Positions 587 to 61,741 of a stretch of 64,000 bases of DNA are shown here, piece by piece. How positions within the stretch are numbered: the first letter of the stretch is position 1; every line of letters starts with the position of its first letter. A model generated the notes under the pieces. That model was not told where the DNA came from and did no database searches. It worked only from the letters and a program-made list of their open reading frames with translations. The DNA comes from Candidatus Nomurabacteria bacterium RIFCSPLOWO2_01_FULL_41_18 (GTDB taxonomy: Bacteria > Patescibacteriota > Minisyncoccia > Phycocordibacterales > UBA9973). The stretch is from assembly GCA_001785865.1 (NCBI GenBank), contig MFUZ01000006.1, positions 176,880-240,879 on the forward strand, in the 5' to 3' direction. Made by a program: the position numbers and the translations under genes.

Positions 587-2930
587 TTTTAATAATTTTT
601 TCTAATAAATCTAATGGGAAAATTTTAGGACTTTCTGCTAGTGCTTGATGGTAAAGGACAGTCGAAGGAGTAAGAGCTGGTAGAGTATTAACCTCGATAA
701 TTATAAGAGCACCAGTTGTTGTATTCATAAAGGCGTCTATTCGTGCATATCCTTGAATTCCAATTTTGATAGCTAATTCTTCTGCTAAAACACAAGTTTT
801 GGAAACAATTTTAGGTTTTATAATTTCAATCGGTGGAGGGGTAATGTTTATACCCGTGCCACCCTGAAATTTTTCTTCTACGGAAAGTACTTCGCCTTCG
901 GCCACAGTCAAACTAGGATTAAAAGCGTGTAATTTATTATTTTCTTCTAAAATTCCAATAGTAACTTCCGCCCAGCCGTCTTTCCTTGTATATTTTAATT
1001 TATTTCCTTTGAAATGTATAATATCTGTTCTAACAAATTTCTCAAATAAAATTTCCTTTATCGCATGATTTGGCATTTCGATGATACTTTTCTGATTAGA
1101 TAAAGTCCCTGTAGGAATGAGGCTTTCATTTTTAAATAAATATTCTAAATAATTCTTTAAGTCAATTTCACTGTATAAATGAGCCACCCCAGTCGAACAT
1201 CCATCATCTTTGGGCTTTACTATCACAGTCTTTGAATCAAGTTCTGATTGGAGCAGATGCCAAAATTCTTTTATTCTGTCTATTTCTATGTCTTTCAAAA
1301 ATACAACTTTCTGTGAAGCAGTGCCTACTCCATTTATCCGTAAATTTCTTATAAATTCCCCTGTCGTAAATTTATCCATACAAAGACGGGAGGTTTTTTC
1401 ATCTGATCCGTTAAATTTTATCTCCTTATCTTGTAACGATTTTTGAAAATTACCATTCTCGCCATCCCCTCCATGTAATCCTAAAAATACAAACGGGGAC
1501 TTGTTTATAAAATCTTCAAAAGATATTTTTCTGGGCATAAAAAATGGTTCAGTTGCTTCTTCGTTTGAAATTAAAAGTTCATTTTTTACTTTTTCTATTA
1601 TATTCTCTGCATTTTTTTGGGTTACTTCAGCATTTTTAGCGTTAGTAATTATTTCTTCTACCGTATGGTTCAAGATCAGAGTGTATGGTAATTCCCACAC
1701 ATTGTTTTCAAAATCGAGCAAATACGGTTTCGGTTTATATATACTAGATTTACGCAATTTGAGCCATACATTAGTTCCACTCATGAGAGACACTTGTCTT
1801 TCCGATGTTTTTCCTCCAAAAATTACAGACACTTGTTTCTTTTCTCCTTCTTTTTGTTTTAAAGATTCTGAAAAATTTATTTTTTGTCTATTACAAGAGT
1901 TTTTAACGACATAACGTAATAAATCGCTATGACTCATGCCGATCCTTGAAGATTGTTGAAAAAGAAAACTATTTTGTTCCATACCTGACAAAGGATTAAA
2001 GTCAGAAAACCAAATTTCACCATTTTTAAGCAACCAACCATCGAAACGAGTAAAATCTTTCATGTCAAAAAGAGAAAACAGTTGCTTGGCTTGTGTTTGT
2101 ATTTTTTCAATTACTTCATTTGGGAACCTTGCTGGACAATGATATTTTACTTGGTTGGTTGGTAAATACTTTTTTCGGAAATCAAAAATCCTGCCTTCGT
2201 GATAAGCCATCTCTATTTCAGAAGGAACCAAGGCAACTGGCATACCGAGCTTGTTTTGTAATATTATGATTGTGAATTCCGTACCTTCTGCAAAAGGTTC
2301 TAGCACCACTCGAGTATCAATTCTTTTAGAGAAAAGAAGATTCACTTTTTCTACAGCTTCTTCCGGAGTATTCACAGAAAAAACTCCAATACTTGAACCA
2401 CTTGCTGCTGGTTTTACAATTGCACGTTTTACGTTATTTTTTATAAAAAACTCCTTGATTATTTTTTCGTTATCTTTAGAATATATTTTTAATAGAACAG
2501 AAGGAAGCGTAAAGAAACCTTTTTCTCGAAGAGTTTTATTTGCCTCATATTTATCGAAGGCCATTTTGCAAGCCTTACTGCTTGATCCAATAAAAGGAAT
2601 TTTATTTTTTTCTAAAAATGTTTGAATTTGTCCATCTTCACCAAATGCACCATGCATCGCAGAAAAAGTTATATCAACTGACTTTAAAAACTTCGCCAAA
2701 GATTTTTGACTTAAGGGTGAAGAATTTTTTGCTAATTTAAAATCAAAATCAGAAGGGTTATTAGAATAAAGATCAGAACAAGAAATTTTGTAAGCTCTTT
2801 TTTTTTGATCAAAATAAATTGGAACGATTTCAATATTTTCACTCGATAGATGATCGAGAACAGACCTAGCGGAATTTAATGATATTCCGCGTTCCAAAGA
2901 CGGACCGCCTGTAAGAAGTGCTATTTTCAT
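573..2930 (-). CDS. ddl: Tandem D-alanine--D-alanine ligase (two complete Ddl/ATP-grasp modules fused, 785 aa)
   Basis: The N-terminal half (MKIALLTGGPSLERGISLNSARSV...IVKPAASGSSIGV) and the C-terminal half (KQVSVIFGGKTSERQVSLMSG...IVKPKDDGCSTGVA...EVNTLPALTPSTV) each carry the Ddl signatures. Confidence 0.8.
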   Translation of the reverse strand: MKIALLTGGPSLERGISLNSARSVLDHLSSENIEIVPIYFDQKKRAYKISCSDLYSNNPSDFDFKLAKNSSPLSQKSLAKFLKSVDITFSAMHGAFGEDGQIQTFLEKNKIPFIGSSSKACKMAFDKYEANKTLREKGFFTLPSVLLKIYSKDNEKIIKEFFIKNNVKRAIVKPAASGSSIGVFSVNTPEEAVEKVNLLFSKRIDTRVVLEPFAEGTEFTIIILQNKLGMPVALVPSEIEMAYHEGRIFDFRKKYLPTNQVKYHCPARFPNEVIEKIQTQAKQLFSLFDMKDFTRFDGWLLKNGEIWFSDFNPLSGMEQNSFLFQQSSRIGMSHSDLLRYVVKNSCNRQKINFSESLKQKEGEKKQVSVIFGGKTSERQVSLMSGTNVWLKLRKSSIYKPKPYLLDFENNVWELPYTLILNHTVEEIITNAKNAEVTQKNAENIIEKVKNELLISNEEATEPFFMPRKISFEDFINKSPFVFLGLHGGDGENGNFQKSLQDKEIKFNGSDEKTSRLCMDKFTTGEFIRNLRINGVGTASQKVVFLKDIEIDRIKEFWHLLQSELDSKTVIVKPKDDGCSTGVAHLYSEIDLKNYLEYLFKNESLIPTGTLSNQKSIIEMPNHAIKEILFEKFVRTDIIHFKGNKLKYTRKDGWAEVTIGILEENNKLHAFNPSLTVAEGEVLSVEEKFQGGTGINITPPPIEIIKPKIVSKTCVLAEELAIKIGIQGYARIDAFMNTTTGALIIIEVNTLPALTPSTVLYHQALAESPKIFPLDLLEKIIKNARY

Positions 2931-2963: not shown

Positions 2964-3707
2964 TTACAGTATAGCACTATTTAGATTTTTAGGGAAGTTA
3001 GTTAAATTCTTATAACCATTTTTTGTTATCAACACCATATCCTCTATTCTTACCCCACCGAAACCTTTCAGGTATATTCCCGGCTCTATAGTCATCACAC
3101 ACCCCACAGGAATAATGTCTTCACTCTTTGGTTTAAAATTTGGCCACTCGTGAATGACAGTGCCGACTCCATGCCCAAGTCCATGTTTAAAATTATTTTT
3201 AAATTTCTTCGCCAAAAAACTTCTAGCAACTCTATCTACTACTTTTGCTTTCTTTTCCCCCTTACTCAACTTCGCTAAAGCACGATTCTGGGCTTCGAGA
3301 ACTACTTGATAAACTTTTTTCTGCTTAGCAGTAGGTTTGCCCCAAAAATAAGTGCGAGTCATGTCTGAACAATAATGATTTATTGTGCATCCAAAATCAA
3401 ACATGATTATATCCGCCCCGCCACGGCGGGTAAACTTTTTTAATTTAGTTTTTCCCGGATTGTGGTGAATATTCGCAGTATTTTTACCAAAAGAAACTAT
3501 TGGTGGAAAGGACAACACATTTACGCCATGGCGTAAATGTGTTTTTTTAATAAAATTTGCAATTTCAAGCTCTGTCACTCCATCCCGTAATTTTTCTATA
3601 GTCTTTTGCAAAACCTTCTCGCTTATCCTCTGCGCTTTTACAATATTTGCCAACTCTTTTTTACTTTTTACCGCCCGTACTTCGTGAATGAGTTTTGTTT
3701 TTTTCAT
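2964..3707 (-). CDS. map: Methionine aminopeptidase type I
   Basis: Metal-ligand motifs DFGCTINHYCSDMTRT, HGLGHGVG, TIEPGIY and RIEDMVLIT. It contains an in-frame GC-rich insertion coding FTRRGG. Confidence 0.9.
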   Translation of the reverse strand: MKKTKLIHEVRAVKSKKELANIVKAQRISEKVLQKTIEKLRDGVTELEIANFIKKTHLRHGVNVLSFPPIVSFGKNTANIHHNPGKTKLKKFTRRGGADIIMFDFGCTINHYCSDMTRTYFWGKPTAKQKKVYQVVLEAQNRALAKLSKGEKKAKVVDRVARSFLAKKFKNNFKHGLGHGVGTVIHEWPNFKPKSEDIIPVGCVMTIEPGIYLKGFGGVRIEDMVLITKNGYKNLTNFPKNLNSAIL

Positions 3708-5574: not shown

Positions 5575-6090
5575 TCAACTATGTGCTTTTTTTTGAAGCC
5601 TGTCAGCCTCGAAGCAATCTACCAACTGTTCAGCGCCACAGACAAGCACTCGAGCGTTCACTTGCGCAAGTTCCTCGTAAGGCCACCAGAAGCCCAGCCC
5701 ATCCTCTGAAGGACAAAAACAAATCTTTTTTTTGTCCTTTGAAACCTTGCTTGTAAATGCGACGAATCCCATTGACCAATCTCCGTAGCGTGGTACAACG
5801 TAATCAACGCCCCCAACAATTTGCGCCACTCCTGTTTTGGTTTTTGGTTGATGAAAGCTGCACAAGAAATTTGGGAAATAGATTCGCAGATGTCTGAGTG
5901 GGTTGTCGCCAAACTCGAAACATTTGTCAATATAACCCCAGATGTCTTCGAGAACTTGGCTCAGGGTATCGTCAAATTGTTTATCAACAGGATCGAAATC
6001 CTGAAAGGGATCGCCTGAGTAGTTAAGAACCTTGTTCCTTATCGGATACAAGTAATGGTCTTTTGCTTTTTTCATTTTTGGATTCTCCAA
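5575..6090 (-). CDS. Hypothetical protein, GC-rich relative to its neighbours (likely true start MKKAKDHY at about 6075)
   Basis: ORF with no recognisable motif. Its local GC is clearly higher than the flanking genes. It is driven by a consensus TTGACT-17-TATACT promoter. Confidence 0.45.
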   Translation of the reverse strand: MENPKMKKAKDHYLYPIRNKVLNYSGDPFQDFDPVDKQFDDTLSQVLEDIWGYIDKCFEFGDNPLRHLRIYFPNFLCSFHQPKTKTGVAQIVGGVDYVVPRYGDWSMGFVAFTSKVSKDKKKICFCPSEDGLGFWWPYEELAQVNARVLVCGAEQLVDCFEADRLQKKAHS

Positions 6091-19820: not shown

Positions 19821-19896
19821 ATTAACGAGCTTTCTTTTTTGGACGCGTTTTGCGTCGCTTTATATTTACAATATGAGAAAAGGCGAATTTGTCAAG

Positions 19897-19968
19897 TGAG
19901 TGTGGAAGGAATCGGACCTTCGACCTCTGTCTTATCAGGACAGCGTTCTACCACTGAACTACACACTC
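19897..19968 (-). tRNA. tRNA-Ile (anticodon GAU)
   Basis: rc = GAGTGTGTAGTTCAGTGGTAGAACGCTGTCCTGATAAGACAGAGGTCGAAGGTCCGATTCCTTCCACACTCA. It folds as a cloverleaf with anticodon loop CTGATAA. Confidence 0.85.
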
Positions 19969-42769: not shown

Positions 42770-42853
42770 ATTCCCTATTCGCCTATTCGCGCGAATTAGA
42801 GAATAGAAAAGCTGGGCTGTGATTATACGTATATGAATACGTATAAAGTCGTG

Positions 42854-42925
42854 TGACCCTACGCGGAATCGGACCGCGATTTAAGCCTTGAGAAGGCCTT
42901 GTCCTAACCGTTAGACGATAGGGCC
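42854..42925 (-). tRNA. tRNA-Glu (anticodon CUC)
   Basis: rc = GGCCCTATCGTCTAACGGTTAGGACAAGGCCTTCTCAAGGCTTAAATCGCGGTCCGATTCCGCGTAGGGTCA. It folds as a cloverleaf. Confidence 0.8.
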
Positions 42926-55551: not shown

Positions 55552-55562
55552 CATTTACACAA

Positions 55563-55590
55563 AAAAACACCCTGAAGGTGTTTTTTTGTG
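55563..55590. terminator. Bidirectional terminator ACACCCTGAAGGTGT flanked by A-run and T-run
   Basis: aaaaaaacaccctgaaggtgttttttt. Confidence 0.65.
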
Positions 55591-55606
55591 TGTGTAATCT
55601 ATAAAT

Positions 55607-55777
55607 TTATTTCTTATCCTCCATTCCATGCCCCTTTGGATCTGCCATGCAACATTGGCCTACTGGTTTGCCAGATCCACAAAAACACTTTTCCATCATT
55701 CCACAGCACGCTCCGTACATTTTTCCAGATCCACATTTGCAATCCTCCATTAATTTTGCTTTTTGTGTTTCGTCCAT
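55607..55777 (-). CDS. Unannotated 56-aa protein with two tandem SEC-C metal-binding motifs
   Basis: Hand translation of the reverse strand gives MDETQKAKLMEDCKCGSGKMYGACCGMMEKCFCGSGKPVGQCCMADPKGHGMEDKK. The two motifs are CxCGSGKxxxxCC. It is below the 60-aa cutoff of the ORF track. Confidence 0.55.
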   Translation of the reverse strand: MDETQKAKLMEDCKCGSGKMYGACCGMMEKCFCGSGKPVGQCCMADPKGHGMEDKK

Positions 55778-56894: not shown

Positions 56895-57401
56895 AAAAAT
56901 CCAAAAAAACTATATATTGAAACAATTATTTTATTATTTTTTTGTGTTGTTATATTTTTTGTATATACAAAAGAAGAGAAAATCACCACCCCGTCTCAAG
57001 TAAAAACCGAAGCTCCCCTCCTTGATAAGGAGGGGGTTCCGGCTGGTAATTTAAAAAAGAACCACCTCGCCTCTGGCACTCCTCCTCAACAAGGAAGAGA
57101 GGAAACTATCCCAGAAAATACTCAATCTGCAACTGTCCTAGCTGGAGAAATGAACATAAATTTATCATTTCTCCCAAATACTATTTTCTATGATGCACTC
57201 ATACAAGCAAGAGATGCTAATAAAATAACATTTTCCGGTAAAAATTATCCTGGGCTTGGATTTTTTGTAACCGACATCGGCACCCTGCATGCAGGCAGTA
57301 GAAAATACTTGATTTATTACATTAATGGGAAGGAGGCGACCGTCGGCGTCTCGGCTTATACACTCAAAAAGGGCGACGTCATCGAGTGGAAATTGGAATA
57401 A
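56892..57401 (+). CDS. Secreted protein with a C-terminal DUF4430-like domain
   Basis: Signal-anchor MKNPKKLYIETIILLFFCVVIFFVY. C-terminus GFFVTDIGTLHAGSRKYLIYYINGKEATVGVSAYTLKKGDVIEWKL. Confidence 0.5.
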   Translation: MKNPKKLYIETIILLFFCVVIFFVYTKEEKITTPSQVKTEAPLLDKEGVPAGNLKKNHLASGTPPQQGREETIPENTQSATVLAGEMNINLSFLPNTIFYDALIQARDANKITFSGKNYPGLGFFVTDIGTLHAGSRKYLIYYINGKEATVGVSAYTLKKGDVIEWKLE

Positions 57402-57402
57402 C

Positions 57403-57453
57403 ATGACCCATTCGAGAAAACCTCAGGGTCATGGTGAGTATAATCGAACCATG
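57403..57453 (+). promoter_or_regulatory. Start-codon-embedding leader element (copy 3 of 3), with a perfect TATAAT 7 nt before the ATG
   Basis: ATGACCCATTCGAGaaaacCTCAGGGTCATGGTGAGtaTAAtCGAACCATG. It starts 2 nt after the upstream stop codon. Confidence 0.55.
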
Positions 57454-59526
57454 ACAAATATATTAAAATTGAGTTTGTTGTGTCTGATGGTGTTTAGTTT
57501 TACTGTAAATATTTATGCAGAAGATACTGAAATAGTTGATCCAGAACCAGTACTCCCTCCAGCCGAAATTCCTCTAGATCCAATTCCAGATCCCGTGCCA
57601 GAACCTGATCCAGCACCAACAGTTACATTTATAATTAGAAATGGTGATACATTGATCTACCAAGACACAACCCCTCTTCCTGACATAGAAAATGATAGAA
57701 ATGTATTATCAGTTTTGCAATCTATTGATGAATCAAGTGATGCATTTTCTATAACAAACATTCAAGAATTTTCTTTCGGTAAATATTTAAAATGCATATT
57801 ACCAACTGATGCGACAGAGCTATGCGACAATTGGCAATACGCCGTCGGAAATTTGACGCCTTTCTCGAGCATAGATACTACAATGCTCGTAGGCGGCGAA
57901 ACAGTAGGCATATATTTCGGCACATCGCACCAGCTCGTCTTGAGCAACGAACGCATTACTGAAGGCGGATCATTGACTGCCACTGCTCAAAAATATAATT
58001 ATGAAACCAACGCATGGGATATATTGGAAGGTGTCTCCGTGGGCGTGACCCTGCCAAATCCCGATGACGCCTGGAATCCGATAGTGGTCTCGACCCACCC
58101 TGTCGATGATGTGGGAATAGCAACTATCACCATCGCCGAAGAAAACACATTCACACTCGGCATCGTGGAAGATTTTTACTTTCCTTCATACACCGTAGTC
58201 GTCGAAAAATCCGAAGAAGACGGCGAAAATGGAAGCGAGAATGAGGGAACGAACGGAAGCAACCCTACCCCACACTCTTTCAGCACCGCAGACGCTTTGT
58301 CGTATCTGAAAAGCATGCAAAGCGAAGACGGATCATTCGGAGACTCCGATCTGTACACAGACTGGGCAGGAATTGCTTTTGGATCTATGAATGTAGGCGG
58401 AAGTTCAAAAACTAAAATTCTTTCTTATTTTGAATCTAATAACGAAATTAGTTCCCTTTTGACCGACAATGAAAGGCGTGCGATGACACTTCTCGCGCTT
58501 GATAAAAATCCATATTCTTTTGGTGATGATGAAGTAAATTACATAAAAGCTATTGTGGATGAGTTTGATGGTGAACAGTTTGGTGATGCAGACTTAGTTA
58601 ATGATGATATTTTTGCTTTGATTCCACTTCAAAATGCTGGTTACAATGAAAACGACGATATGATTATAGAAGACATCACTTTTATAATTTCAAAACAAAA
58701 AAGTAACGGCTCATGGGAAGAAAGCGTAGACGTCACAGCGGCAGCTATCCAAGCACTTGAAGCTTTTGATGGAGTAGATGGGGTTTCAAATGCACTCTCG
58801 CAAGCAAGTGCTTATCTCGAAAATGAACAAAACAGTGACGGTGGTTGGGGTAATGTTTCTTCTACAAGTTGGGCAATGCAAGCAGAAAGTGCGCTAAATA
58901 CGTCATGGTCAAAAAATGGAAAAGATGGACTTGATTATCTAGCGACAGGGCAAGAAGAAGACGGCGCAGTTTCCCCTACCGAAGAGACACTTGAAAATCG
59001 CATTTGGGCAACGAGTTATGCAGTTGCCGGAGCTTCGGGAAAGTCATGGGGTGAAATTATGAATTCAGTTTCAAAACCATCAAATCAAGAAGAGAATTCT
59101 GGGAATAATAATGAAAATGATTCAGATGATGAAAATGATTCTAGAGATGACACAGAAGATGAAATAGAGGATGTTGCTCCAGAAGAAACCCAAATTAAAA
59201 CAGTTGTCTGCCCTGTCGGAGATTTTTTTAACGCGACGACTGGAGAGTGGTGCACCGAATTTGTGGTGATAAATAATCCACCAATTATTAAACAAGAAAC
59301 AAAAATAGTAAAAAAAATAGAGATAGTGGAAACTCTAGCGGAAGAAAAAACATTAGGAGAACAAACTTTAACAACAACAGAGACCCTGACAGCAACAGCT
59401 ATCGGTACATTACCTACCGAGCAAAGTGTGCCACCGGAAAAAACTTCCAGTACGACCCCGATTGTTCTCGGAACTCTCGGAGGAATCGTTCTTCTTTATA
59501 TTGCCGCTAAGTTTTTGATCAAATAA
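57451..59526 (+). CDS. Large surface protein with an N-terminal DUF4430-like region, prenyltransferase/squalene-oxidase-type alpha-alpha toroid repeats, an acidic linker, and a Thr-rich C-terminal anchor (TM plus basic tail)
   Basis: The likely true start is MTNILKLSLLCLMVFSFTVNIYA (a signal peptide). The track ORF starts 42 codons earlier and runs through the leader element. Repeats: SEDGSFGDSD..., QKSNGSWEES..., EQNSDGGWGN... and GQEEDGAVSP.... C-terminus ...TLPTEQSVPPEKTSSTTPIVLGTLGGIVLLYIAAKFLIK. Confidence 0.6.
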   Translation: MTNILKLSLLCLMVFSFTVNIYAEDTEIVDPEPVLPPAEIPLDPIPDPVPEPDPAPTVTFIIRNGDTLIYQDTTPLPDIENDRNVLSVLQSIDESSDAFSITNIQEFSFGKYLKCILPTDATELCDNWQYAVGNLTPFSSIDTTMLVGGETVGIYFGTSHQLVLSNERITEGGSLTATAQKYNYETNAWDILEGVSVGVTLPNPDDAWNPIVVSTHPVDDVGIATITIAEENTFTLGIVEDFYFPSYTVVVEKSEEDGENGSENEGTNGSNPTPHSFSTADALSYLKSMQSEDGSFGDSDLYTDWAGIAFGSMNVGGSSKTKILSYFESNNEISSLLTDNERRAMTLLALDKNPYSFGDDEVNYIKAIVDEFDGEQFGDADLVNDDIFALIPLQNAGYNENDDMIIEDITFIISKQKSNGSWEESVDVTAAAIQALEAFDGVDGVSNALSQASAYLENEQNSDGGWGNVSSTSWAMQAESALNTSWSKNGKDGLDYLATGQEEDGAVSPTEETLENRIWATSYAVAGASGKSWGEIMNSVSKPSNQEENSGNNNENDSDDENDSRDDTEDEIEDVAPEETQIKTVVCPVGDFFNATTGEWCTEFVVINNPPIIKQETKIVKKIEIVETLAEEKTLGEQTLTTTETLTATAIGTLPTEQSVPPEKTSSTTPIVLGTLGGIVLLYIAAKFLIK

Positions 59527-59530
59527 AATG

Positions 59531-59615
59531 CGGAGATGGTGAGATTTGAACTCACGATACCTTGCGGTATGCCGGTTTTCGAAACCGGTGCTTTAAACCT
59601 CTCAGCCACATCTCC
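59531..59615 (-). tRNA. tRNA-Ser (anticodon CGA)
   Basis: rc = GGAGATGTGGCTGAGAGGTTTAAAGCACCGGTTTCGAAAACCGGCATACCGCAAGGTATCGTGAGTTCAAATCTCACCATCTCCG. It has a long variable arm, which is typical of Ser tRNAs. Confidence 0.85.
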
Positions 59616-59650
59616 ATGTCTTTTAATCTAGCATTTTTTAAAATTTTGGC

Positions 59651-59680
59651 TAGAAATTAAACAAGGCTTGGAGTTGTACT
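59651..59680. terminator. Perfect 13-bp hairpin CAAGGCTTGGAGT-tgt-ACTCCAAGCCTTG
   Basis: It lies between tRNA-Ser and a GC-rich non-coding stretch. Confidence 0.5.
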
Positions 59681-60097
59681 CCAAGCCTTGCGATGATAAA
59701 ACCCTGATACCCTATTTACCATACTTACCGTCCTACGAGTGAAAGCACCTGACTCTGGAACCGAAGTCCCGTGCCAGTGATCCCTTCATCGGAAACCTTC
59801 GTATTAGTAACGAATGGCATCCAATCCCCTTGCCTTGAACTGTAAACTGCGTTCCACGCCTTCTGTGCAAGTGACGTGAAATATTGTGGGTGTGAGATTG
59901 TTTTCTCGTGCATTTTTGGTTTTAGTTGGGTTTTTGGTTGTTGGGTTGTGCTATGAATTCTCCTCCCGAAGAATCCACAGCGGGTGAACATTAAAACTAC
60001 AAAAATATCCTAGCACGCTTGCTAATTTTTGTCAAGTGTTGTGAAATAATAAAATTAAATTTGTTTTTTTAAAAAAAATGTTATAGTATCCAACATT

Positions 60098-60169
60098 GGC
60101 CCTATCGTCTAACGGTTAGGACAACGGGTTTTCAATCCGTTAATCGCAGTTCGATTCTGCGTAGGGTCA
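60098..60169 (+). tRNA. tRNA-Glu (anticodon UUC)
   Basis: GGCCCTATCGTCTAACGGTTAGGACAACGGGTTTTCAATCCGTTAATCGCAGTTCGATTCTGCGTAGGGTCA. It shares its 5' half with the Glu-CUC tRNA at 42854-42925. Confidence 0.8.
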
Positions 60170-60341
60170 CAGCTACATAAAACAAACCCACTGCTGGGCT
60201 TTTTTATGTGCTGTGACGACCGCAGTGATGTTTTGTCAGTAGACAAAACCACGAGGAGCGGACTGCGAAAATTCTGAGTGACGAAGAAGAATTATTTGTG
60301 GTCACATTTTTGTAAAAAATTGCAAAAAAAAGTGGCCTGCG

Positions 60342-60366
60342 TTTTCCACGCAGGCCAGTGCACCCA
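60342..60366 (-). terminator. Hairpin GGCCTGCGT-tttcc-ACGCAGGCC with a U-run on the minus strand
   Basis: Minus sense: ...GGCCTGCGTGGAAAACGCAGGCCACTTTTTTTTGC. Confidence 0.5.
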
Positions 60367-60759
60367 ATTTGTAGTTATACGAACCTACTGCTTACGCAAA
60401 CCTCATCACCCGATCCTGATCACCACTCCTCCTCCAGTCGGCGACAATGCCACGACTGGTTGGACGAGAAATCAATCTCGGATCATGCCACGTCCTGAAT
60501 CTGATGGTGGGACGATCCAAGCGAACAGGATTTGCTGAGGTTTCTTTGAGACCCTGCCTTACTGCAGGCGCCGTTGCGTTTTGCGTTTGCATTTTTTTTG
60601 TTTTTCGTTTTTGGTTTTACGTTGCTGCTCTTGGTTGAGGAACCAATATGTCGGTGGAGAACCGACACCGAAGAACAGCTTCAAAAAGACTGTACCACAT
60701 CTTCTTTAATAAAGCAATTTTTCCACAATCCCTTTAAAAATAAGCCTAAAAATCAGTGA

Positions 60760-60788
60760 TTGACTTTTGAGTATGAATATGCTATACT
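60760..60788 (+). promoter_or_regulatory. Sigma70 consensus promoter TTGACT-N17-TATACT (plus strand), a twin of the promoter at 6174-6202
   Basis: ttgact-tttgagtatgaatatgc-tatact. Confidence 0.6.
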
Positions 60789-60862
60789 GTAGAGAGTAGG
60801 TAGTAAATAGTTCAAACAACGGTCTCCTTAAAATGGGGACTGCAACAATTCAACCGAAAGAG

Positions 60863-61057
60863 ATTATGAAGTCAAAAAATTCACTCAATGCGAAGTGGTC
60901 TCGGCAAAGATACGAAGACAACAACGAGATCATGAGACTTGGGATATGGGGCATGGCATCGGCTACAGCAGTTTGGTTCACAATCTGCGCCACTTGTAGC
61001 AACGAGTCGGCAACGCATCTGGTGGACTGCTTCCGACACATCGTCGCCAACTGGTAA
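60863..61057 (+). CDS. GC-rich small ORF (about 63 aa) between a consensus promoter and a hairpin terminator. It could alternatively be an ncRNA.
   Basis: RBS gaaagag is 5 nt upstream. Terminator at 61080-61120 (GAGCGCCAAGG...CCTTCGGCGCT plus a T-run). Confidence 0.3.
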   Translation: MMKSKNSLNAKWSRQRYEDNNEIMRLGIWGMASATAVWFTICATCSNESATHLVDCFRHIVANW

Positions 61058-61144
61058 TCTCATGAAAACATCAAATCGTCGAGCGCCAAGGTTCTATTCC
61101 TTCGGCGCTTTACTGTTTTTATATATACTTTATAATCATACTTA

Positions 61145-61741
61145 ATGACTAAAAAAGAAGAACTAGAGAATTTACATAATAAATGGAAACAAGAATGCTC
61201 GTGCGAACTTAAAAAAACAGCCACGCAGGCAGTGCCAGGGGCTGGCAGCCCTGATGCAGAGATAGTCTTTATCGGAGAAGCGCCAGGAAAGAAGGAAGAC
61301 GAACTCGGAATCCCATTTGTCGGATCTGCGGGGAAATTCTTGGACGAAATGCTAGGGTTGATAAATTTAAAAAGAGAAGATATATACATCACAAACGTAG
61401 TAAAGTACCGCCCGCCAAACAATCGCGATCCTAGCCCCGAAGAAAAAAGTGCCTGCCGAGAATGGCTCTTGGAAGAGCTTAAAATAATTTCCCCAAAACT
61501 CATAATCTTCCTCGGGCGTCATGCAATGAACAATTTCTTTCCAGAACTCCAGATATCCGGCGCGCATGGTAAATTATTAATCAAATCTTTCAAAGATATA
61601 TCTACAAAATATTTCTTCCCTCTTTATCATCCAGCAGCTGCTCTGTATGACGGCTCTATGCGTGAAACTTTAAAAGACGATTTTAAAAAAATTCCGAAAG
61701 TCTTGAAGGAGATAGAGAAACGTGAAGAAAAAGCAAATTAG
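61145..61741 (+). CDS. udg: Uracil-DNA glycosylase, family 4
   Basis: GEAPGKKEDELGIPFVGSAGKFLD motif (GE[AG]PG...G.PF.G.AG). Confidence 0.8.
   Translation: MTKKEELENLHNKWKQECSCELKKTATQAVPGAGSPDAEIVFIGEAPGKKEDELGIPFVGSAGKFLDEMLGLINLKREDIYITNVVKYRPPNNRDPSPEEKSACREWLLEELKIISPKLIIFLGRHAMNNFFPELQISGAHGKLLIKSFKDISTKYFFPLYHPAAALYDGSMRETLKDDFKKIPKVLKEIEKREEKAN

Follow-up and report, generated by a model that had tools for sequence, protein, structure and literature searches.

Organization of the interval

The DNA analysed here is a 64,000-nucleotide (nt) stretch of a Candidatus Nomurabacteria genome (Paceibacteria, candidate phyla radiation, CPR), referred to as a whole as the window. The interval of interest, positions 59527-61144, adjoins the uracil-DNA glycosylase (UDG) gene (61145-61741), and an identical interval is present in seven public contigs. 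It was compared with 80 related UDG-centred Nomurabacteria loci, labelled with L numbers, as are the metagenome loci named below; the relatives of the UDG gene are all from Candidatus Nomurabacteria or Paceibacteria metagenome-assembled genomes, at 63-86% protein identity. Taking both strands together, we divide the interval into five pieces: a tRNA-Ser gene, a unit A, a tRNA-Glu gene followed by 146 nt, a unit B and a unit C. Outside both tRNAs the only part conserved elsewhere is the 146-nt piece at 60171-60316 on the plus strand, which we call the tRNA-trailer element and which is our main subject. Rather than a single RNA gene, the interval is a patchwork that occupies a variable site flanked by tRNAs.

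A preliminary description, made from the sequence alone, had placed a tRNA-Ser and a tRNA-Glu gene in GC-rich, structured DNA. ARAGORN and Rfam agreed on both genes: tRNA-Ser(CGA) at 59530..59615 on the minus strand (62.1 bits with the Rfam tRNA model) and tRNA-Glu(UUC), in which CCA is not encoded, at 60098..60170 on the plus strand. A likely promoter of tRNA-Glu (TGtTATAGT, 60079-60087, found by eye) lies back to back with the promoter of unit A. The stretch called GC-rich (59700-60090) has 40.2% GC and the whole interval 42.8%, against 40.0% for the window, so that the label is wrong for most of the interval; the sole high-GC stretch is 60325-60690, at 48.9% (95th percentile of 350-nt windows). 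Promoter-like sites (5 versus 3.2 expected) and terminator-like sites (5 versus 2.6) were not enriched over shuffles.

Among the relatives, the spacing from tRNA-Ser to tRNA-Glu ranges from 13 nt to several kb, the orientation of tRNA-Glu flips, and the cargo between both tRNAs differs by genome (a major facilitator superfamily transporter, phosphoglucose isomerase or a phosphoribosyltransferase). The earlier suggestion of mobile DNA beside the tRNA genes was therefore correct in part: this tRNA neighbourhood is a hot spot of insertion and rearrangement in relatives, but a search for direct repeats found no tRNA-end repeat above shuffles that would delimit an integrated element inside the window. 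A phage or plasmid origin of 59616-61144 was rejected, as the phage matches consisted of tRNA-Glu against phage tRNAs alone and there were no plasmid matches.

It had further been proposed that the interval encodes a divergent housekeeping RNA, namely RNase P RNA, transfer-messenger RNA (tmRNA), 6S RNA or signal recognition particle (SRP) RNA. The size of units A and B (~340-390 nt) is comparable to that of such RNAs, and a few short motif resemblances complete the case for it. A cmscan search with Rfam models, of the whole window at the gathering score and of 59400-61300 at E<=10, found no RNase P, tmRNA, 6S or SRP RNA; tRNAs alone reached the gathering score, and the supposed RNase P-like motifs gave no RNase P match even at E<=10. 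ARAGORN likewise reported four tRNAs and no tmRNA in the window. Units A and B are absent at this locus from all 80 related genomes, and their open reading frame (ORF) translations have no relatives among 5.8e9 proteins. Because a housekeeping RNA would be conserved and units A and B are not, we regard this identity as virtually excluded, within the reach of sequence and structure models. The interval does hold an unrecognized structured RNA, but at 60171-60316, which had not been singled out before, and as a tRNA-trailer element rather than a housekeeping RNA.

Conservation and fold of the tRNA-trailer element

The window copy of the element lies on the strand of tRNA-Glu(UUC) and follows it directly, with a gap of 0 nt. 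When 60171-60332 was compared by blastn with the 80 related loci, L053 and L044 matched at 91% identity, which is above expectation because the UDG proteins of the matching genomes are only 76-82% identical. Six relatives of the window copy were recovered with nhmmer (E = 5e-31 to 4e-4), comprising L053, L044 and four more loci. RNAalifold on seven copies predicted three helices, and 15 of the 33 pairs were compensatory, with changes on both sides. A covariance model, R1, was then built from 7 copies with the window copy among the seeds, whose score of 140.9 bits is thus high by construction. This model identified 16 copies in the 80 related loci, nearly all of which start a few bases 3' of a co-oriented tRNA for Glu, Val, Ser or Ala. 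Elsewhere in the window R1 gave two weak plus-strand matches that are probably due to chance, at 3419-3564 (18.1 bits, E = 0.07) and 55553-55691 (14.5 bits, E = 0.53), and the other two tRNA genes, Ile-GAU (19896-19968) and Glu-CUC (42853-42925), had neither an element nor a repeat of their 3' end.

Further copies were collected from metagenomes with a pattern composed of the loop of the first hairpin (H1), hairpin H2 and a GAG bulge, without any tRNA sequence. The pattern matched 120 metagenome stretches, and R1 confirmed 76 copies in 80 loci among them, with E-values down to 4e-36. The family numbers at least 90 copies. Although tRNA sequence played no part in the collection, 44 of the 71 metagenome copies examined start no more than 60 nt 3' of a co-oriented tRNA, and 12 more lie 61-400 nt downstream of one, several of these being second copies in tandem arrays. 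The hosting tRNAs carry at least 20 anticodons and serve Glu, Lys, Leu, Phe, Arg, Pro, Ile, Met, Ala, Val, Ser, Thr, Cys, Tyr and Gly. One locus (L186) has five copies within 2.3 kb, four of them as pairs of a tRNA and an element.

The common fold consists of H1, whose A-CUGC-U loop is invariant, and, behind it, a three-way junction formed by a short closing helix (P1), a long arm composed of P2, P2b and H2 with the conserved GAG bulge, and a second long arm, H3. In the window copy, H1 occupies 60179-60205 (CUGC at 60191-60194) and is followed by six U residues. P1 pairs UGUG at 60212-60215 with CACA at 60303-60306, and the joining segment J (ACGA) lies at 60216-60219. P2 is formed by 60220-60223 with 60258-60261, P2b by 60225-60227 with 60250-60252, and H2 by 60230-60249; the bulge GAGGA is found at 60253-60257 and the H3 arm at 60262-60302. 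On the same strand, 17 nt behind the element, is the hairpin (60333-60357) that is the predicted terminator of unit B on the other strand.

Support for this fold came from several comparisons. In alignment A6, standard pairs occupied 93.5% of cells, versus 65% after shuffling and 39-54% when the partners were slid, and all 33 of 33 pairs changed on both sides, versus 27.5 in shuffles. The covariation score was 0.655 versus 0.195 for the control and was reached by 0 of 500 shuffles; these covariation figures derive from a model-fitted alignment of pattern-selected copies. Helices P1, P2 and P2b were additional ones found by reading the alignment. We also used an alignment-free test, in which each copy's own strands were compared with those of other copies, and obtained z = -12.3 for P2/P2b and -9.0 for P1. 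There were 115 G.U pairs against 26 A.C pairs overall; in copies assigned to class 1 (defined below), the core had 55 and 6, respectively. Therefore, the tRNA-sense strand is the strand that folds.

Rfam has no model for the element, either in the window (E<=10) or in eight other copy-bearing loci (gathering score). As the RNA immediately upstream of the element requires a precise 3' end, self-cleaving ribozymes were also looked for, and HDV-like, hatchet, hammerhead, twister and pistol ribozymes gave no Rfam match over the same loci and thresholds. A literature search found no description of such an element. We conclude that the element almost certainly belongs to a conserved structured family absent from Rfam. 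Kink-turn, box C/D, hammerhead and T-box motifs were tried by eye for the conserved junction bases and rejected, as their spacing does not fit. In L130, L124 and L193 an extra mini-hairpin, GYGUACUCRC, stands between the H3 arm and a repeat of the tRNA end and may be an optional module.

Insertion behaviour and tRNA-matched arms

The tRNA-Val locus offers both empty and filled sites. In L033, L012, L028, L014 and others, the ATG of tsaD follows tRNA-Val by 0-7 nt, while in L049, L025 and L032 the element stands between tRNA-Val and tsaD. The position of tsaD just behind tRNA-Val(GAC) recurs in many Nomurabacteria (L033 8777, L012 5749, L028 7331, L014 8959), an arrangement in which the tsaD mRNA would arise by read-through from tRNA-Val and have its 5' end set by tRNA 3' processing.

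Among 57 tRNA-adjacent copies, 24 carry directly at the element's 3' end a near-perfect repeat, 13-19 nt long, of the 3' end of their own tRNA. The repeat covers the 3' part of the T-loop, the 3' strands of the T-stem and of the acceptor stem, and the discriminator. Among the 195 tRNAs with enough flank, 36 had their own 3' end repeated 60-320 nt downstream, and the upstream control gave 0. A copy or a repeat was associated with 17 of 124 tRNAs in the UDG-centred loci. We refer to repeat-bearing copies as class 2 and to abutting copies without a repeat as class 1; class 2 copies mostly start 12-57 nt after the tRNA.

The two classes occur nested in L142, L148 and L146, where tRNA-Glu is followed by a class 2 copy, the tRNA 3' repeat and a class 1 copy. 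This second, class 1 element aligns from the first post-tRNA base of L045 and L013; therefore, an older element was already in place when another was inserted in front of it, precisely at the end of the tRNA. L158, L187 and L132 contain exact tandem units.

Class 2 copies are also matched to their tRNA by complementarity. Behind H1 they carry the reverse complement of the cognate T-loop and T-stem 3' strand, and rare T-loop variants are matched as well (TCCGAGT of L187 by ACUCGGA). The spacer before H1 contains a segment complementary to the discriminator and the 3' strand of the acceptor stem. Complementarity scores of class 2 copies were 9-19 with the cognate tRNA versus means of 6-9 with non-cognate tRNAs, and class 1 copies scored at background. 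An exact complement of at least 6 nt to the acceptor arm was found in 18 of 29 copies, compared to 4% for non-cognate tRNAs, and one of at least 7 nt to the T arm also in 18 of 29, compared to 10%. In minimum free energy (MFE) folds, class 2 copies form an acceptor-like helix, with H1 branching off, and a long T-stem-like P1 with the conserved core on top. Copying of the arms from mature tRNA, which carries an added CCA, was considered and rejected: as the complement enters the genomic flank instead of CCA (L193 and L187, by eye), there is no sign of it.

The window copy has no tRNA 3'-end repeat and no complementarity to tRNA-Glu above background, which places it in class 1, and it has no terminal inverted repeat besides the 4-bp P1. 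It is probably an old or immobilized copy, because the core is present and the tRNA-mimicking arms and the repeat are absent.

The family extends beyond what R1 detects. The closest relative with the same surface-protein gene (L010) has a divergent unit behind tRNA-Glu (5676-5840, minus strand) that R1 missed; it includes a repeat of the tRNA 3' end (17/20) together with a complement of the T arm, and its H1 and H2 differ. As this unit was missed, and as R1 gave no match for 19 of the 36 tRNAs whose own 3' end recurs downstream, the family is wider than the model.

Repeats that run from T-loop to discriminator are what tyrosine integrases leave at tRNA genes, and the copies might accordingly be recombination scars at the DNA level, i.e., attL and attR arms left by integrase-driven islands after loss of their cargo, with hairpins that are incidental terminators or protein sites. 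One locus does have real cargo of this kind: in L053, a 417-amino-acid (aa) ORF separates tRNA-Glu from a decayed remnant of the tRNA-Glu 3' end, which is followed by the trailer element. Like islands and prophages in tRNA genes, the elements are inserted at tRNA 3' ends, have the T-loop-to-discriminator direct repeat and accrete in tandem. However, no integrase was found near any copy, the neighbouring ORFs being unrelated housekeeping or cargo genes, and a single integrase family would have to target 20 or more different tRNAs. The units are 150-210 nt in length, with neither an integrase nor an ORF, and tRNA 3'-end repeats of the kind that border islands, present in the class 2 copies elsewhere, are missing from the window. 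In addition, covariation in every helix and a 4-9 fold excess of G.U over A.C indicate a selected single-stranded fold and not duplex sites, and a three-way junction would not persist across a family of scars. We therefore consider this origin improbable.

The L053 ORF (634-1887, minus strand) is lysine-rich, has a HEPN-like RN-x3-H motif (KIRNLIVHNEG) and looks like defence-type cargo. It was examined as an 'autonomous' partner of the element and dismissed, as it belongs to no Pfam, NCBIfam or PHROG family and looks like inserted cargo.

Interpretation of the family

We favour the reading that the family is a mobile element targeting tRNA 3' ends, with a probability of roughly 0.55. The element would be transcribed as the 3' trailer of a tRNA precursor, since its position leaves no space for a separate promoter, and the tRNA 3'-processing nuclease would separate it from the tRNA. 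It would be non-autonomous, aiming at tRNA 3' ends and spreading by way of the folded single strand, as RNA or DNA. No ORF fits inside the 146-210-nt units. Our confidence in any specific mechanism of spread is low.

Several points weigh against this reading. The collection pattern required the H1 loop and H2, which biases the family's diversity and frequencies, and the 32 pattern matches in viral contigs were all chance, with no real copy among them. The paired percentages from alignment A6 are somewhat inflated by model fitting. No recombinase, reverse transcriptase or transposase is consistently near the copies, and the window copy itself is without any mobility hallmark. We infer both the co-transcription with the tRNA and the release by processing, and the U-run after H1, found in the window copy and many class 1 copies, could end transcription before the core. 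How the arms come to match each tRNA is not accounted for, and units A and B are left outside the explanation. Finally, some copies stand behind protein genes and not tRNAs.

Two copies of this last kind illustrate the settings involved: one (L131 466-614, minus strand) is just downstream of the rplM-rpsI operon, next to rpsI, and another (L195 8570-8713, plus strand) is behind a methyltransferase gene beside a type I/IIG restriction-modification gene. The ORFs by tRNA-less copies are mutually unrelated (S9/L13, methylases, radical SAM, pseudouridine synthase).

In the main rival explanation, the trailer would be a part of the tRNA precursor that serves the host, in termination, as a guide or protection in 3' processing, or in read-through control, and ordinary recombination between tRNA loci would have spread it. 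The fold is under very strong purifying selection, also in class 1 copies without mobility marks, and H1 with the U-run of class 1 copies resembles an intrinsic terminator. Copies that follow protein operons do so in sense orientation, and the abutment of tsaD on tRNA-Val in 'empty' genomes puts trailers on read-through transcription paths. Against this, most orthologous tRNAs lack the element (17 of 124 in the UDG-centred loci have a copy or repeat), and the genes that follow it are of unrelated kinds. A plain terminator or leader would not be expected to show tandem stacking, exact repeats of the target end or tRNA-matched arms. On balance a host-serving trailer seems to us rather unlikely, though it is much more credible than recombination scars.

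Within the preferred mobile reading, a more specific and tentative proposal is that the family represents a mobile element of an undescribed kind, about 150-210 nt long, protein-free and co-transcribed with tRNAs, whose arms are rewritten to match the acceptor and T arms of each target and which inserts exactly at the tRNA 3' end, duplicating its last 13-19 nt. The folded strand would then consist of the conserved three-way-junction core and two arms. If true, this would imply templated targeting, possibly RNA-guided or based on reverse transcription; we know of no described bacterial element that uses it.

The element shares features with several known systems. Small RNAs (sRNAs) derived from the spacers and trailers of tRNA precursors, such as the 3' external transcribed spacer of E. 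coli glyW-cysT-leuZ, are short, weakly structured and locus-specific. The RNA of the element would similarly come by read-through from a tRNA promoter and obtain its 5' end through tRNA 3' processing, but it is a three-way junction of ~146 nt that is found behind many tRNAs and shows insertion behaviour. Miniature inverted-repeat transposable elements (MITEs) such as Correia, RUP, BOX and ERIC are miniature non-autonomous bacterial repeats that fold as RNA. The element resembles them in being small, non-coding, multi-copy, presumably co-transcribed with its neighbours and polymorphic in presence and absence. It differs in having neither fixed terminal inverted repeats nor a short fixed target duplication, its target being tRNA 3' ends; the paired ends and 13-19-nt repeats of class 2 copies vary with the target tRNA, which they copy or complement.

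We also considered tRNA-like structures (TLS), namely the tRNA-like domain of tmRNA, the viral 3' TLS and mascRNA. Class 2 copies are similar in that an acceptor-like helix is stacked on a T-stem-like helix, with the tRNA 3' end as 3' strand. However, a junction domain of ~95 nt takes the place of the T-loop, the discriminator is paired, the mimicry is specific to the neighbouring tRNA, and the window copy has no such arms; the Rfam tRNA, tmRNA and TLS models did not match the element. A further comparison is with the guide segments of mobile RNAs, as in the pairing of exon- and intron-binding sites (EBS-IBS) of group II introns and in the IS110 bridge RNA. Segments of the element are likewise complementary to the flank of the insertion site and vary by copy with the target, but intron domains are missing, as are genes for a recombinase or reverse transcriptase, and the target end is repeated, so that this likeness is an analogy only.

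CPR bacteria (Patescibacteria) have tiny genomes with very little non-coding DNA, and a structured multi-copy non-coding element at a sizeable share of tRNAs (17/124) is unexpected for that reason. If the family is mobile, its target-matched arms suggest a way to direct DNA insertion to tRNA 3' ends without an element-encoded protein, which would matter for the biology of mobile elements and perhaps for programmable insertion. If it has a host function, it would add a new layer of tRNA precursor processing or read-through control in bacteria that have not yet been grown alone. In either case annotation gains, as the element regions now appear as spurious ORFs or blanks and can be labelled with R1.

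Orphan units A and B

On the minus strand, two units flank the tRNA-Glu gene and its trailer; both are species-specific orphan units running from a promoter-like site to a predicted terminator. Unit A (59655..60035) consists of a promoter (TTGACA-17-TAGGAT with TG, 60035..60007, found by the promoter scan), a 5' hairpin, a CA-rich tract, an ORF and a terminator. The preliminary description saw no convincing ORF here, yet an 88-codon ORF at 59991..59725, in which an internal AUG gives 62 aa, covers most of the unit. The perfect 13-bp inverted repeat that it reported was confirmed (59662-59674 / 59678-59690) and is contained in the terminator-like hairpin at 59691..59661, which has 14 pairs and a loop of 3 and is followed by UUUAAUUU.

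Unit B (60325..60715) has a promoter-like site (TTGCTT-17-TGgTACAGT, ~60717..60689) that was identified by eye and that the scan did not report, hairpins at its 5' end, a tract rich in CA/A, an ORF of 66 codons (60592..60392) and a strong terminator with a 10-bp stem, 7 GC pairs and a CU8 tail. The terminator scan placed the latter at 60357..60333; it is the minus-strand terminator described before, which is real but had been drawn ~9 nt off, at 60342-60366. Both minus-strand hairpins fit predicted intrinsic terminators, with a GC-rich stem-loop and a U-run.

Neither unit had a blastn, nhmmer or tblastx match in the 80 related loci or a match in phage or plasmid collections, and no DNA relative was found in any locus fetched. 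The ORF products matched only themselves among 5.8e9 proteins, and ORF codon usage looks non-coding in both units, as it does in unit C. Decay from genes seen at this locus in relatives was tested for units A, B and C and discarded, since tblastx against the 80 loci gave nothing below E = 0.18. Units A and B were also rejected as paralogues: their global alignment has ~50% identity, as for unrelated sequence, and the CA tract and promoter consensus alone align. A 19-nt complementarity between them is marginal, being reached by 2 of 300 shuffles, and was dropped as a firm claim.

The earlier label 'structured' was not confirmed. Dinucleotide shuffles gave a folding z of -5.2 for unit A, -4.85 for unit B and -2.5 for unit C, but random 330-nt windows of this genome have a mean of -0.8 (sd 1.9, minimum -4.4), and without the terminators z is -3.0 for unit A and -4.7 for unit B. 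Because this background and the removal of the terminators shrink the z of the minus-strand units, the structure signal is moderate at best, and folding z was set aside as proof of structured RNA in units A and B.

Units A and B may represent sRNAs particular to this lineage, genes for small proteins preceded by CA-rich leaders, or foreign DNA in decay. As regulatory sRNAs they would combine a hairpin at the 5' end with an unpaired, CA-rich seed tract and a structured 3' portion. The promoter-like site and terminator on the same strand in each unit, the z-scores with terminators included, and the non-coding-like codon usage are consistent with this, as is a 45-nt CA-rich tract common to both (z = 7.5 versus a mononucleotide shuffle), although that tract is of low complexity. 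However, with no homologue there is no covariation test, and once the terminators are removed z falls within or at the edge of the genome background. In each unit the ORF ends ~35 nt before the terminator, and an AUG follows the CA/A-rich tract; the codon usage of unit C is equally atypical, yet unit C is coding. We hold the sRNA interpretation to be possible but doubtful.

A small protein gene in unit C

On the plus strand ahead of the UDG gene, the promoter reported at 60760 was recovered by the promoter scan as TTGACT-17-TATACT with TG (60760..60788). It had been assigned a roughly 300-nt orphan transcript ending in a hairpin terminator at 61080-61120. Promoter and hairpin are present, but as judged from its reading frame and homologue, 60795-61125 is the mRNA of a small protein of 74 aa, encoded by a 74-codon ORF at 60833..61057. 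The mRNA ends in a hairpin and U-rich tail (61077..61125); the MFE fold gave a hairpin at ~61077-61112 followed by UUUACUGUUUUU, while the terminator scan did not report it.

The predicted protein contains a single hydrophobic segment, and its C-terminal motif IC-x-TCS-x-ESATHLV-x-CFRH is conserved. When 1.84e9 representative proteins were searched exhaustively with HMMER, the result was a sole homologue (P0004, 79 aa, 50% identity, E = 4.5e-10), and there was no match to a Pfam, NCBIfam or PHROG family. The gene of this homologue, in metagenome contig L240, has the same strong promoter, short leader and terminator positions, and 18 aligned codons differ only synonymously between the two genes. 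Two caveats apply to the coding call, the single homologue and the atypical codon usage. In the 80 related loci unit C had no counterpart by blastn, nhmmer or tblastx, and it had none in phage or plasmid collections. A foreign origin fits, because the codon usage is unlike that of the genome. In L240 the small gene is followed by a 221-aa ORF (672-1337, plus strand) with a faint LAGLIDADG_3 match and by a tRNA-Leu. From this setting, the small gene may move with mobile DNA close to tRNAs.

Genes flanking the interval

The UDG gene is seemingly leaderless: a TTTACT-16-TATAAT promoter-like sequence ends 8 nt before its ATG at 61145 (window 61109-61147), and there is no Shine-Dalgarno sequence. 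On the other side of the interval, the 733-aa 'surface protein' (57325-59526, plus strand) has a squalene-hopene-cyclase-like domain (prenyltransferase repeat), an acidic low-complexity linker and a C-terminal membrane anchor, and two DUF4430 genes lie upstream of its gene.

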